DNA of 64,000 bases. It comes from Promethearchaeota archaeon (GTDB taxonomy: Archaea > Asgardarchaeota > Lokiarchaeia > Sigyniarchaeales > SOKP01). The stretch spans positions 1-64,000 of the forward strand of contig JAHPZI010000015.1 of the NCBI GenBank assembly GCA_019058295.1, read 5' to 3'. Position 1 is the stretch's first letter; every line of letters begins with the position of its first letter. Positions 241-41,067 of this stretch are shown one piece after another. Under the pieces are notes generated by a model. It was given only the letters and a program-made list of their open reading frames with translations. It did not search any database and was not told the DNA's origin. The translations under genes and the position numbers were made by a program.

Positions 241-371
241 AAAATCGTGGCATTGAAATGTTAGGTCTCGAAACAATTATATCTCAGATATATCGGGCTA
301 TTAGTCGAATAACCAGATACGTCCAAAATAACACAGGTTTCAAGCACTAAGCATTCCAATGCCACAATTTT
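241..371 (-). ncRNA. Candidate structured ncRNA domain (long terminal stem with internal hairpins)
   Basis: 241-274 pairs with 337-371 (about 30 bp). Four C/A mismatches on the + strand become G.U pairs on the - strand. Inner hairpin GGUUAUU/AAUAGCC. No ORF. Confidence 0.55.
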
Positions 372-381
372 TTTTTCTTTT

Positions 382-448
382 AACGCTCAATTAAGTCGAA
401 TCACCTACAGAGGTGACGAGGAATTGAACCTCATCGACTCTTGAGGTT
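382..448 (-). ncRNA. Candidate tRNA-like three-way-junction RNA with canonical T-arm
   Basis: Minus strand reads CUCAA-GAGUCGA-[UGAGG UUCAAUU CCUCG]-[UCACCU CUGU AGGUGA]-U-UCGACUU-AA-UUGAG. Confidence 0.6.
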
Positions 449-470
449 GAAATATTAGTATCAAACTGCA

Positions 471-486
471 TATTTATATTTATCGG
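471..486 (-). promoter_or_regulatory. Putative archaeal BRE + TATA promoter for the ncRNA candidates
   Basis: Minus strand CCGATAAA-TATAAATA lies about 25-30 nt upstream of the structured RNA start (~448). AT-rich background lowers specificity. Confidence 0.45.
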
Positions 487-511
487 AAATTAAAAAAAAA
501 ATCATCTCTAC

Positions 512-33345: not shown

Positions 33346-35475
33346 TTACACATAATTTTTTTTGAGATCATTTAGTTTAGATATAATCTCATCGCTAATA
33401 TTTCCCACAACTACTACATTACCCATAGATTTTATCTCTTTAATAAAATGTGCAAATTGATGACGAGCTGGACCTGGGGGTAATTTATCCATATTATCTT
33501 CTAATAACGCACCTAATTCATCGGTTTTTATTCCACCATTAATCTTTCTATAGAATTCATTAAATATCCCATCTATTTCAATTTCTTTTGTTCTCGATAA
33601 TGTTTTACTTATAGATTCAGAAGGAGTACTTGGTTCACCAGAACTATCTCTACCTAAGACTAAAACGTGAGGTTCAGTTCTAGGATAATCTCCTGTACCA
33701 GAGCAATTATAATTTATACTTATTGATTTTCCACCTAGTAATTCCGGAATCTTTATTTTTACCTCAGATTCTTTGCCTTTTTCATGAATAGTACCTATGG
33801 GAGGTGAAAATTCAGTTAAAGCAAAACCAGAGGGAATATCATCCGTTACAACAATATTTTCTAATTCGACATCTCCCTTATTTTGGATTCTAACAGAAAT
33901 ACTAAACTCTCCTTCCGAAAGCCCTGGTTTAACACTTTTAAGTGTTTTAAGCTTTCTCGCAACATATTTGATTTTTATTACAGGTTCTTCAGGAGGACTT
34001 ATTATAAACTCTTTACCTTTTATCAAAACATTTGCTTTTACCTCTACTGGTGTATTATATCTGGCTTCAGGCTTAGGATTTCTTGCTAGAAGAGGATAAC
34101 TCATAGATATTTCAGAATTTGGTGGAACTTGGCTTTTTAAACCTTTTAATCTAATAGAAATTATATGTTTAGAATCTGGATTTTGATCATCTGGATTAAT
34201 CCCAATCGCTTCAATGAATTCTTCCTTATTTTGAATTTCAGCAACCCCTTCCATATTTTTTACCTCTATTTTTAAATCTTTATTAATAAGAGGGGGAACA
34301 AAATCGGGGGGTATTTCATCTATTATTTCAAGATGATCTATGTTTGATGTTCCTAAATTAGGAATGCTATTCACAATAGTCATATCAGTATTAGCGTATG
34401 CGGCTACTTCAGGAGGATTAATCGTTTTATGAATTTCTATGCTTAAAACGTGATAAATGGTTGGTTCCTTTATAATCTCACCTATTACTCTAGTAATTAC
34501 TCCAAATAATGGTGTGAATTCAATTTCAGATGCTAAATCAGGTACATTTTGACCATCAACAAGGAAATCTTTTTCCCATGACTGTTCGGGATCCAGTTCA
34601 ATATTAGGGGTTTCAGAAACAACATTTTCGGAGCCCGTAGGGATATTATGGGAAACTTTAACATTTTCAAGTCGTACTTTAAATTCAGAATCATTAATAA
34701 ATTCGACATTACAATCCCAAGTTGCGGGATTAGATCCTTCCTCTCTAGTAACTCCGCTCATTGAGTCCGTTTCTCCTCGCACTTCTGGTTTTATCATAGT
34801 TAGTATTTTATTATCGATTAAATAATTGACTCTCAAATTACCTAAAGTTTGGTCCTTTCTTTCCTTCACATTAACTACACAATACACCTCAAGAGTGGCG
34901 GTTTCTTTTTGAGGTAAATTCTCTATTTTCCAAGTTAATATCTTTTTTCCTTCTTCTTGTCCTAATTCAGCATTTCCAAAATTAGGGGATTTAATTTCAA
35001 TATCTTGGAGAAGTGGAGGCATTTCTTTCGTTACTGTTATTTCAGTGAACGGTATTTCCAAGGTATTTGTAAGGTCGATTTTTAAATTGCATTTATTTGT
35101 GTTCTCGTAAAGAAATGCGTTATTAATTTTACCTGAAATATCTCTTTCAGCATCAAATGTTTCAATGACTTTTAAGCAAGGCTCCTTTAAATTTTGAATT
35201 TCATATTCCTGTTTAAATTCCTGATCAGGATTTATGGCACCTACATTTAGCTCTTTACTTAAATTAGTATTTATAGTTTCTTTTAAGTCGCAACTTAAAT
35301 TCCATAGCCTACTTTTCTGAGATGTATTTTTAATCAATAAAGTCCCTTTTCCTTTAATCTCTTTTATATCATGTGCACCAGTTGCCCCTATCTCTGTTGG
35401 GGATAACACTGTATCTTCATAATCAGTTATATCTATAACGATTAAATTTTTTAATTCGCTCATTTTTTTAACCAT
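33346..35475 (-). CDS. Cytoplasmic beta-sandwich protein with putative N-terminal mu-homology domain and DUF11/Ig-like domains
   Basis: No signal peptide or TM segment; strand pattern parallels AP-mu/delta-COP MHD (see findings); later VRIQNKG..LENIVVTDDIP repeats. Confidence 0.55.
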   Translation of the reverse strand: MVKKMSELKNLIVIDITDYEDTVLSPTEIGATGAHDIKEIKGKGTLLIKNTSQKSRLWNLSCDLKETINTNLSKELNVGAINPDQEFKQEYEIQNLKEPCLKVIETFDAERDISGKINNAFLYENTNKCNLKIDLTNTLEIPFTEITVTKEMPPLLQDIEIKSPNFGNAELGQEEGKKILTWKIENLPQKETATLEVYCVVNVKERKDQTLGNLRVNYLIDNKILTMIKPEVRGETDSMSGVTREEGSNPATWDCNVEFINDSEFKVRLENVKVSHNIPTGSENVVSETPNIELDPEQSWEKDFLVDGQNVPDLASEIEFTPLFGVITRVIGEIIKEPTIYHVLSIEIHKTINPPEVAAYANTDMTIVNSIPNLGTSNIDHLEIIDEIPPDFVPPLINKDLKIEVKNMEGVAEIQNKEEFIEAIGINPDDQNPDSKHIISIRLKGLKSQVPPNSEISMSYPLLARNPKPEARYNTPVEVKANVLIKGKEFIISPPEEPVIKIKYVARKLKTLKSVKPGLSEGEFSISVRIQNKGDVELENIVVTDDIPSGFALTEFSPPIGTIHEKGKESEVKIKIPELLGGKSISINYNCSGTGDYPRTEPHVLVLGRDSSGEPSTPSESISKTLSRTKEIEIDGIFNEFYRKINGGIKTDELGALLEDNMDKLPPGPARHQFAHFIKEIKSMGNVVVVGNISDEIISKLNDLKKNYV

Positions 35476-37872: not shown

Positions 37873-38754
37873 CTATATAAATCCACTCGTTTTCAAGCCA
37901 CCTTCCATCCAACTTATCAATAAATGTAAACCAATAATATTCTCCTTGGTATGGATTGTAGAATTTGGAATGTATGTTTCGAGATATTTTGATGCGAGAT
38001 ATTCTATAGATGGATTTTCGCTATACCATTGTATTAATGATTCTTTTACCTTAAAATAGAAGTCCTGTAGCTCATCTAGCAATTTATCAAGAGTCTTATC
38101 ACTCAACACTCCAAAATGTGCCATAGATACTGAATCAATATCTCCTCTCATGTTTCTTAGTCTCTTAAAAGTCTTTAAGAGTTCAGATTCATTAAATTCG
38201 GGTGGCATTATGTTTGGTGCAATAGTGTGTTCATCCCAAAAATACAAAATTGAATCACCAGTGAAAAGGTTTCTATTGTTTTCGTCTAAAACAGCAATTG
38301 AGTCTTGAGTATGCCCAAAGAAATTCAAGACTTTCAAATCCAAACCATTTAAATCGATAACATCTCCTTCTTTTAAAGGGGTTATATCTCCTTCTATAGG
38401 TGGTATCGTATAACCAAATGCCTCATTCATTATTCTTGGATCTTTTAAATGTTTTATGGCATTTTCAGACGCAAGAATTTCAAAATCCCCATTCAATTTT
38501 TTCAGCTTTTCACATGCCTGGACATGGTCCCAGTGGCTGTGTGTTAAAAGTAATTTTTGTATTGGAAATAAACCAAATTCTTTTAATTTCTTTACTACTT
38601 TCCGAGACGCTAACGGTTCGCTCGTGTCAAACATCATACGTTCTCCACCATTTTCAATTATATAAATGGCCATTGTGCCTGGCAAACGAAATAACATACC
38701 ATCAATGAGATATGTATTCTCATTAAACTTTCCTTCATCAGTAATTTGTCCCAT
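37873..38754 (-). CDS. Metallo-beta-lactamase-fold hydrolase
   Basis: THSHWDH, GHT, FTGD, AHFG. Confidence 0.9.
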   Translation of the reverse strand: MGQITDEGKFNENTYLIDGMLFRLPGTMAIYIIENGGERMMFDTSEPLASRKVVKKLKEFGLFPIQKLLLTHSHWDHVQACEKLKKLNGDFEILASENAIKHLKDPRIMNEAFGYTIPPIEGDITPLKEGDVIDLNGLDLKVLNFFGHTQDSIAVLDENNRNLFTGDSILYFWDEHTIAPNIMPPEFNESELLKTFKRLRNMRGDIDSVSMAHFGVLSDKTLDKLLDELQDFYFKVKESLIQWYSENPSIEYLASKYLETYIPNSTIHTKENIIGLHLLISWMEGGLKTSGFI

Positions 38755-39048: not shown

Positions 39049-39597
39049 ATGCAAGATGCTGTGTTTAAACTGTGTATATTCGGGGACGGGGGAGTTGGAA
39101 AGACAACCTTAGTGAACAAGTATCTTACAGGAGTATTTAAAAATTCAACAATGACTATTGGTATAGATTTTCATATAAAAACACTATTAATTGACGGAAT
39201 TAAAGTAAGATTGCAAATATGGGATTTTGCGGGTGAAGAACGTTTCAGATTTCTTTTACCAAGTTATATAGTAGGAGCTTCAGGGGGGATTTTTATGTAT
39301 GATATCACAAGATTTTCAAGCTTAAAAAACTTAAACGATTGGTTAGATGTACTTAATCATGGGGCGTCAGCGATAGAGAACCAAATCCCTATTTTATTGG
39401 CGGGGGGAAAGGCCGATCTTGAGGAAAATAGAGCAATTGATAAAGAATTAGGTTTTGAAACAGCAAAAGAAAATAACTTATGCGGTTTTCTTGAATGTTC
39501 TGCCAAAACTGGGGAAAATGTGGATCTTATCTTCGAAACCATTACTCGAAAAATAATAAAAAAAGCAGGAATCTTTGAAGTAAAACCAACTTTTTAA
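39049..39597 (+). CDS. Rab-like small GTPase (Ras superfamily)
   Basis: FKLCIFGDGGVGKT, TIGIDF, LQIWDFAGEERFR, YDIT, GGKAD, ECSAK. Confidence 0.93.
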   Translation: MQDAVFKLCIFGDGGVGKTTLVNKYLTGVFKNSTMTIGIDFHIKTLLIDGIKVRLQIWDFAGEERFRFLLPSYIVGASGGIFMYDITRFSSLKNLNDWLDVLNHGASAIENQIPILLAGGKADLEENRAIDKELGFETAKENNLCGFLECSAKTGENVDLIFETITRKIIKKAGIFEVKPTF

Positions 39598-40575: not shown

Positions 40576-41067
40576 TCATAGACTAGTTTTTTGGTTAGAG
40601 ATGCTTCTAACTTTTTTTATCCATTCGGAGAATTCGGGTAAATTTTTTTTAAGGTTATGTATAGGTAAAGCATTTTTCTTTTTACTGACCATTAGAGAAT
40701 CTTTAATTTCTCTAGTGAAATCGTTAAAAGGACTGAGATCTACAATAATTTCATTTTTCAAGTGTTCTCTATACAAGTTGAGAAATTTATGCGCAATTAA
40801 TTCTAATTCATAATTAATAGTTCTTGAACCAATATTTTCATTGGAATTTGCAATAAATAATATATTTTCTTTCTTAAGAATTCCAAAACATTTATATCCA
40901 AAATTTATACTTGTAATCTTCGTTTCAATAATCATTTCAGCAACTTTATTTATGGCACACATTAGACCTCCAAAAAGTTGATCATCAATCTTTTTATTGT
41001 AAACTCGATGATATAAGACAATTCCTGAAATGTCAATTATCCAAATATCTTGTAAAATATTAACCAA
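40576..41067 (-). CDS. Stand-alone longin-like domain protein
   Basis: IWIID.SGIVLY, QLFGGLM.AI, LFI, L..I...F...Y, F..F pattern. Confidence 0.72.
   Translation of the reverse strand: MVNILQDIWIIDISGIVLYHRVYNKKIDDQLFGGLMCAINKVAEMIIETKITSINFGYKCFGILKKENILFIANSNENIGSRTINYELELIAHKFLNLYREHLKNEIIVDLSPFNDFTREIKDSLMVSKKKNALPIHNLKKNLPEFSEWIKKVRSISNQKTSL

Follow-up and report, generated by a model that had tools for sequence, protein, structure and literature searches.

The 64,000-nucleotide stretch of DNA analysed here (the window; positions 1 to 64,000 of contig JAHPZI010000015.1 of a Promethearchaeota archaeon, assembly GCA_019058295.1) contains a minus-strand gene for a 709-residue protein, which is homologous to the eukaryotic mu homology domain (MHD) over residues 8–340. 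In clathrin-adaptor and COPI coats, sorting signals are read by the MHD, and its origin therefore bears on the rise of vesicle traffic in eukaryogenesis. The archaeal MHD has no longin domain ahead of it and is followed, in this order, by a pilin-like β-sandwich, a DUF11 domain, a disordered Ser/Pro linker and a four-helix bundle; neither a signal peptide nor a transmembrane segment is present. Taking the results together, we consider it probable that this is a soluble cytosolic protein whose N-terminal MHD homolog acts as a cytosolic adaptor or scaffold, and that the Lokiarchaeia form docks via the bundle. The family is already known as a candidate Asgard eukaryotic signature protein (ESP), and the additions made here are modest, comprising confirmation at the level of the fold, the full domain architecture, with a bundle that may be Vps28-C-like, and a corrected, near-universal distribution. 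The features of the gene are as follows.

33346..35475, minus strand: whole gene, 709 residues plus stop (list of open reading frames and translation)
34456..35454, minus strand: MHD, residues 8–340 (VIA-align to solved MHDs, PF00928, reciprocal PDB profile search)
34771..35145, minus strand: approximate MHD subdomain B, residues ~111–235 (strongest sequence likeness to mu subunits; also DUF11-type)
33967..34449, minus strand: pilin/CnaB-like β-sandwich, residues 343–503 (VIA-align; predicted local distance difference test score, pLDDT, ~90)
33658..33966, minus strand: DUF11 Ig-like domain, residues 504–606 (Pfam PF01345, TIGR01451)
33595..33657, minus strand: disordered Ser/Pro/Glu-rich linker, residues 607–627 (pLDDT <50 at 611–625)
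33349..33594, minus strand: C-terminal four-helix bundle, residues 628–709 (AlphaFold2 helices 628–646, 651–664, 669–683 and 692–708)

An MHD homolog at residues 8–340

The structure of the full-length protein was modelled with AlphaFold2 on an alignment of 56 orthologous sequences. The model has a mean pLDDT of 87.7 and is all-β from residue 8 to residue 606, disordered from 611 to 625 and helical, with four helices, from 628 to 708, which agrees with the Ig-like domains, linker and helical C-terminal domain that had been read from the letters alone in an earlier note on this DNA. When the full-length model was searched with Foldseek, the C-terminal domains of mu2 and mu3 were found at E~2e-9 with TM-scores of 0.56–0.64 normalised on the target, and the first 46 rows were all MHDs when the Foldseek candidates were aligned with VIA-align. 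The best superposition, on AP2 mu2 (5wrk_A), gave Z 16.4 with a root-mean-square deviation (rmsd) of 3.1 Å over 223 of 245 residues and paired model residues 8..338 with mu2 residues 169..435; the Z scores were 16.1 for mu1, 15.5 for mu3 (mu3A), 15.3 for mu4, 14.7 for bovine delta-COP and 13.8–14.4 for SGIP1. A VIA search against 48,161 representative PDB chains placed MHDs at all of ranks 1–7 (Z 14.7–16.4), with yeast delta-COP (Z 13.3) and Syp1 (Z 12.6) lower in the list.

Over the seven kinds of MHD compared (mu1, mu2, mu3, mu4, delta-COP, SGIP1 and Syp1), 211–228 residues are aligned with rmsd values of 2.6–3.7 Å, covering 85–93% of the target residues at a sequence identity of 9–15%. All of these alignments are sequential and rigid-body, and they run from residues 7–10 to residues 337–340 of the model and reach the final residue of each MHD chain. 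The earlier note had named beforehand, as the outcome that would tell against an MHD, a model made of tandem Ig domains only, and these end-to-end alignments to seven kinds of MHD are what was found. Because they are sequential from the first residue to the last, the last strands (324–336) must share a sandwich with the first strands, with subdomain B between them; the model thus points, indirectly, to the interleaved two-subdomain topology of MHDs. The archaeal domain is ~100 residues longer than eukaryotic MHDs, the excess probably lying within residues ~236–320. An MHD had been placed in the first ~230 residues by the earlier note; the domain itself is borne out by PF00928 and by the fold, and it is the extent that has to be revised, to ~340 in every structural alignment.

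The sequence carries the same signal, most strongly in subdomain B. Pfam PF00928 (Adap_comp_sub) matches residues 77–219 to profile positions 86–219 with E=6.6e-9 and 35.9 bits, above the gathering cut-off of 31.6. It is also matched by 18 of the 56 orthologs at E<=0.01 and by seven of ten distant relatives, among which P0158 scores 40.9 bits with residues 108–325 aligned to positions 12–236 of the 259 in the profile. In Asgard genomes the PF00928 matches mostly span profile positions 113–228. For the reciprocal search, a profile (A2) was built from 47 diverse copies of the MHD region, with identities down to ~20%, and run against all 177,635 PDB sequences; 21 of its 22 matches were to the mu subunits of AP-3, AP-2 or AP-1, with best E-values of 3.4e-5, 0.025 and 0.29, respectively. 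In these searches the family profile at 111–225 aligns with AP-3 mu 279–396. The alignments produced by HMMER equate the β-1 motif 'I-D-I-x-E' with mu2 'LFLDVLE', 'KelP' with 'IPTP/VHMP', 'lkWeIeeL' with 'IVWKIKRM' and 'IevnYev' with 'ISMNFEV'. The segments quoted as AP-mu-like in the earlier note do occur in the order given there (residues 9–18, 39–49, 90–103, 144–153, 166–187 and 213–228), and four of its pairings reappear in the HMMER alignments. The likeness between the N-terminal region and AP mu subunits thus exceeds what chance would produce.

Other sequence searches gave little. A single-sequence phmmer search of the protein against the PDB returned no match, and a whole-protein profile (A1) found no MHD there, its only match being a spurious one to an adhesin in the DUF11/linker region. 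The sub-profile of residues 205–280 found nothing in the PDB, and that of residues 1–120 found only the start (β-1) of the yeast delta-COP MHD, at a non-significant E=1.3; weak collinear β-1/β-2 matches to mu2 and delta-COP were also seen. In the ESM Atlas, residues 1–342 retrieved no clusters other than those of the family itself, which carry the label DUF11. DUF11 matches residues 127–204 within the MHD at E=0.005, and in paralogs the corresponding region reaches E=4e-11. In paralogs P0158, P0161 and P0165 the same residues of subdomain B match both PF01345 (E=4e-11) and PF00928, and this double match hints that the inserted subdomain B of the MHD may be derived from a prokaryotic DUF11-type domain.

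The same data bear on whether the likeness to MHDs could be convergent, or that of a generic β-sandwich, in a protein that is really a tandem DUF11/Ig-repeat protein. The concentration of sequence likeness in a subdomain that also matches DUF11, the identity of just 9–15% to solved MHDs and the empty PDB search with residues 205–280 would fit such an origin. Against it, the alignments to the seven kinds of MHD run sequentially from first to last strand over nearly the whole target, MHDs outrank Ig and pilin proteins with ~90 more residues aligned, some of the Pfam alignments span profile positions 12–236, and the weak matches at β-1 and β-2 of mu2 and delta-COP are collinear. In addition, PF00928 had 0 matches in 14 control genomes. 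One of these controls, Methanosarcina acetivorans, is presumably rich in DUF11 proteins, and if so the PF00928 match is no generic DUF11 cross-hit. Convergence is already largely refuted, and we regard it as highly improbable.

The MHD of eukaryotic complexes is held in place by its own longin domain. The archaeal protein has no match to PF01217 (Clat_adaptor_s), and a longin domain is absent, since the MHD fold sets in at residue 8; the earlier note had also stated this. In mu2 the YxxPhi peptide site is formed by F174, D176, K203, W421 and R423. The archaeal D15 falls opposite D176 in a very weak HMMER alignment (-0.4 bits), and K49 falls opposite K203 by reading register only; neither residue is conserved in the paralogs. 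Invariant across the family are N50, W58, Y91, E105, N137, W182, E246, W253, N261, W300 and P312. In other MHDs the bound motifs are WxW (delta-COP) and DPF (SGIP1).

Downstream domains and the C-terminal bundle

The β-sandwich at residues 343–503 superimposes on the EbpB pilin (9lj6_A) with Z 13.9 over 128 residues (model 345..502), and in the search of 48,161 chains EbpB, SpaD, RrgB and TTHA1873 were found at Z 13.4–13.9. The domain that follows matches PF01345 (DUF11) at residues 522–591 with E=1.5e-11 and 45.1 bits (cut-off 24.6), and the TIGR01451 DUF11-type repeat with E=3.7e-6; a DUF11 match is present in 56 of 56 orthologs. These are the additional domains that had been described as appendage-like from the sequence, and they turn out to be pilin-like and DUF11 sandwiches rather than adaptin appendages; Pfam matches to AP3B1_C or Alpha_adaptinC2 among the 56 orthologs are weak and sporadic only. 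The linker varies in length and sequence across the aligned homologs.

The bundle at the C-terminus contains a conserved 'LPPGP..HQ' loop in the alignment. Makarova et al. 2024 (PMC11188069) describe Asgard multidomain proteins in which adaptin-like Ig domains are combined with a Vps28 C-terminal domain (CTD) and for which a contact with ESCRT-II has been proposed, and for this reason the bundle was modelled alone. It folded with a pLDDT of 74. A Foldseek search of the PDB gave as its top match the Vps28 CTD 2j9w_A (E=0.073, TM-score 0.54/0.59, 18% identity), with 2j9v and 2g3k lower, and the VIA search placed the Vps28 CTD 2j9u_A, its best match to a natural protein, at rank 2 (Z 9.6, rmsd 2.9, 84 of 94 residues), on a par with a designed repeat protein at Z 9.7. 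Among the matches listed in the ESM Atlas were the family itself, three small Asgard hypothetical clusters, an Asgard DDRGK/UFM1-ligase/PCI cluster (row 5) and a eukaryotic VPS28 cluster (row 7, TM-score 0.53); the DDRGK/UFM1-ligase/PCI protein of the same genome bears a C-terminal Pfam VPS28 match. A complex prediction for the bundle with the Vps22 homolog of the genome (L064:1444-2160) scored 0.00, which counts neither for nor against binding.

Vps28-type domains occur elsewhere in the genome. A canonical Vps28 of 218 residues is encoded at L012:1453-2109, and a 790-residue protein with DDRGK, E3 UFM1-ligase, PCI and C-terminal Vps28-C domains is encoded at L013:3051-5423 (minus strand, contig C25), the unusual Asgard fusion described by Liu et al. 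2021. The genome also encodes a free steadiness-box protein.

Distribution, gene context and possible function

The source genome is an Asgard metagenome-assembled genome (MAG) of 3.2 Mb that is 79% complete, and the window has a G+C content of ~31%. Met 5, at 35463, is an alternative start, and it is where the orthologs begin. More than 250 full-length homologs of the 709-residue protein, of ~700 residues and with 50–94% identity, are found in Promethearchaeota/Lokiarchaeota-type MAGs only, and all of them carry the annotation 'hypothetical protein'. The protein has no hydrophobic segment by Kyte-Doolittle analysis (maximum 19-residue mean 1.13), which agrees with the lack of a signal peptide reported in the earlier note, and its isoelectric point (pI) is 4.96; we therefore take it to be soluble and cytosolic.

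The wider family extends well beyond these orthologs. Among 1.84 billion cluster representatives searched with a profile, 573 relatives were found at E<=1e-3. Three classes are seen, namely proteins of ~700 residues with the C-terminal bundle, proteins of ~590–620 residues without it, and proteins of 690–1100 residues with an extra N-terminal helical region; copies outside the window's own family are mostly of the ~600-residue form. With profile A2 the family was detected in 167 of 201 sampled Asgard genomes (83%), among them 72 of 85 high-quality ones, and in 23 of 27 families, so that it is a near-universal core Asgard gene. Pfam PF00928, applied to the same 201 genomes, matched in 45 (22%) at E<=1e-3, nine of them above the cut-off, and at the same loci. 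It follows from these two counts that the 'sparse distribution' reported by Eme et al. 2023 (Nature 618:992; PMC10307638, Suppl. 4.3.1, Table S3) for 44 Pfam-based Asgard Adap_comp_sub candidates, and the distribution of this adaptor domain called 'patchy' by Koestlbacher 2026 (PMC12962969), are largely artefacts of detection sensitivity.

Two paralogs of the MHD protein are present in the source genome. One (L007:748-3096, minus strand, contig C16 at ~55.3–57.7 kb) has 782 residues and no C-terminal helical bundle, and carries ahead of its MHD an N-terminal extension of ~280 residues with an HeH/LEM/SAP-like motif (PF12949, E=6e-6). The other lies outside the window on contig C15, at ~108.1–110.2 kb, and is split into two overlapping plus-strand reading frames, L008:614-1495 (293 residues) and L008:1492-2931 (479 residues), by a frameshift or an assembly error or as a genuinely split gene.

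The MHD gene is monocistronic. It diverges from a gene for a 282-residue CxxCxxCC protein and converges with a DUF1015 gene, with PEMT and DJ-1/PfpI genes further out, and the arrangement is kept in Lokiarchaeia at 52–68% identity. Gene context was compared over 23 loci from many Asgard families. In the 20 loci that come from other Asgard families, nothing recurs beside the gene except an MBL-fold hydrolase, a PCC-domain protein and a bactofilin. The MBL-fold hydrolase (Lactamase_B_3, ~230 residues) is directly upstream and co-directional in seven of the 20 loci, from four families, with gaps of 39–146 bp, in each case beside an MHD gene of the ~600-residue form (L044, L047, L048, L049, L052, L053 and L063). 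MBL-fold genes are also found 2–3 kb away from the MHD gene in the window (37873–38754) and in L002.

A coat or adaptor role for the protein is suggested by its fold. To our knowledge, every MHD characterised so far binds proteins or peptide motifs in trafficking, and because all of them behave in this way, the MHD and the rigid array of two β-sandwiches behind it would be expected to bind short linear motifs or partners, for example membrane proteins by their cytosolic tails. In the Lokiarchaeia form, the flexible linker of ~20 residues would tether this recognition module to the four-helix bundle, and the bundle would dock it onto another machinery. The partners of the eukaryotic Vps28 CTD are ESCRT-II/III, and for this reason ESCRT-II/III is the leading, weakly supported candidate for the docking target. 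A second reason is a yeast two-hybrid link, reported in PMC9192718, between Loki ESCRT-I (Vps28 and/or Vps23) and the ESCRT-II subunit Vps22.

Several observations weigh against this account. The MHD is acidic (pI 4.8), unlike the lipid-binding surface of mu2, which is basic. Most members of the family outside Lokiarchaeia are of ~600 residues and have no C-terminal bundle, so that the core job of the family cannot depend on the bundle. Over the 23 loci, no small GTPase, longin, ESCRT, SNARE-like or coat gene was found as a conserved neighbour. As for the bundle, its Vps28 scores (Z 9.6, TM-score 0.53–0.59) are within the chance range for helical bundles, which cease to match by chance at Z ~13; six C-terminal domains of the family had no match to PF03997 (VPS28) at E<=10; and hhalign comparisons of the bundle with single Asgard Vps28 CTDs and with a 30-sequence profile gave probabilities of 0.5–3% (3% with the 30-sequence profile). 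With no sequence signal and with scores in the chance range, the predicted fold of the bundle is called Vps28-CTD-like only tentatively.

The recurrent neighbours are also what could be expected if the protein were a cytosolic β-sandwich scaffold working outside membrane traffic, with an enzyme, the cytoskeleton or the envelope from the inside, and if the MHD fold had been recruited to sorting later, in eukaryotes. DUF11 is widespread in prokaryotic proteins that have no part in trafficking, subdomain B of the MHD scores as an ordinary DUF11 Ig domain, and the paralogs carry quite different N-terminal modules, including the HeH/SAP-like motif. Set against this are the binding of proteins or motifs in trafficking by every characterised MHD and the large amount of other trafficking-related machinery encoded by Asgard archaea, and the recurrence of the neighbours may itself stem from shared ancestry of the sampled genomes. 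We think a role of this kind unlikely.

A further alternative is a split coat resembling AP or COPI, in which a primitive cargo-selecting membrane coat would be built in trans from the MHD protein, a separate longin protein (sigma/mu-N-like) and a HEAT-solenoid protein (adaptin-N-like). The near-universal presence of the MHD family in Asgard archaea speaks for it, as does the finding of Eme et al. 2023 (PMC10307638) that Asgard archaea encode all five AP domains but never as fusions. Candidate parts are present in this genome, namely Adaptin_N-scoring HEAT proteins and a reading frame with the only Clat_adaptor_s (PF01217) match of the genome (C17:30314-30721, plus strand, 24.4 bits with a cut-off of 22.5, inside a 384-residue frame). 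These parts, however, lie on other contigs and are unlinked to the MHD gene, with no co-localisation in the 23 loci, and Adaptin_N also matches control genomes, so that the HEAT proteins are not specific evidence. The longin domain that holds a eukaryotic MHD in its complex is absent here. The longin-like reading frame of the window (40576–41067, minus strand, 163 residues), which the earlier note had offered as a partner, matches Fuz_longin_1 only marginally (E=0.021) and does not keep its place beside the MHD gene in related genomes. Such a coat seems to us distinctly unlikely.

A gene for a Ras-family small GTPase (39049–39597, plus strand; PF00071, E=4e-45) lies ~1 kb from the longin-like reading frame, with a DUF1847 gene between them; in related genomes neither of the two is syntenic beside the MHD gene.

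The cytosolic adaptor or scaffold with an N-terminal MHD thus remains the reading we favour, and a bolder form of it can be stated to which we give little chance: that all eukaryotic MHDs descend from this free-standing family, which was already a cargo-selecting adaptor, wired to ESCRT in its Lokiarchaeia form via the Vps28-C-like bundle. If that were true, an ESCRT-0-like, MHD-based sorting route would be older than the longin–MHD fusion behind the medium subunits of AP and COPI, and as a corollary MHD subdomain B would go back to a DUF11-type Ig domain of prokaryotes that became inserted in another sandwich.

Comparison with known systems

Adap_comp_sub-like proteins of Asgard archaea have been published, and the window adds no new kind of thing to them. 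One entry in Table S3 of Eme et al., Lokiarchaeales_AMARA_1S_SDNY010001181_10, is nearly identical to the reading frame of the window from Met 5 on, which means that the central claim is already in print, and the Hel-, Hermod- and Jordarchaeial entries of the table align with the family alignment. The candidates of Eme et al. are the same protein family, and the absence of a fused Clat_adaptor_s/longin domain was noted there too. Their account contains neither a structure model nor a domain architecture and does not mention the C-terminal bundle; the present analysis confirms the fold and detects the family in 83% of the 201 genomes, as opposed to 22% with the Pfam model. In the literature searched, neither a structure model nor an account of the architecture or distribution of the family was found, and the mu domain is not specifically mentioned in the searched text of Liu 2021, Makarova 2024, Koestlbacher 2026 and a 2026 structural-clustering preprint. 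The likeness now rests on a match of the fold over the full domain, beyond a marginal Pfam match. The Lokiarchaeia form offers a defined, experimentally tractable architecture of recognition array, linker and docking bundle, and the family is a concrete target for partner-finding in cultured Lokiarchaeia.

The Asgard proteins with Vps28-C and adaptin-like Ig domains, as described in Liu et al. 2021 and PMC11188069, likewise have β-sandwiches joined to a C-terminal four-helix bundle and are centred on Lokiarchaeia. Unlike in those proteins, the bundle described here has no Pfam VPS28 match and no profile–profile signal.

The MHDs of the AP-1 to AP-4 mu subunits and of delta-COP (PDB 1BW8, 4IKN, 4MDR and 4O8Q) share the fold of the whole domain with the archaeal protein (Z 14.7–16.4), as well as the invariant Trp of the 'xWxI' strand in subdomain B (W182 here) and the collinear order of motifs. 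Unlike them, the archaeal protein is ~100 residues longer in its MHD, acidic rather than basic, and continues after the MHD into two β-sandwiches and a helical domain. It also lacks the N-terminal longin domain and so cannot enter the core of a heterotetramer in the eukaryotic way, and a mu subunit of an AP-like heterotetramer is ruled out on that ground.

The earlier note had proposed an organisation like that of muniscins (FCHo1/2, SGIP1, Syp1) or stonins. In those proteins the MHD is C-terminal and follows an F-BAR or stonin-homology region, whereas the archaeal MHD is N-terminal and is not accompanied by a membrane-binding module. A muniscin or stonin is therefore ruled out by the different order of domains and the lack of an F-BAR domain. 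What the archaeal protein does share with them is an MHD that stands outside the AP heterotetramer, in a soluble, multidomain protein with a flexible linker.

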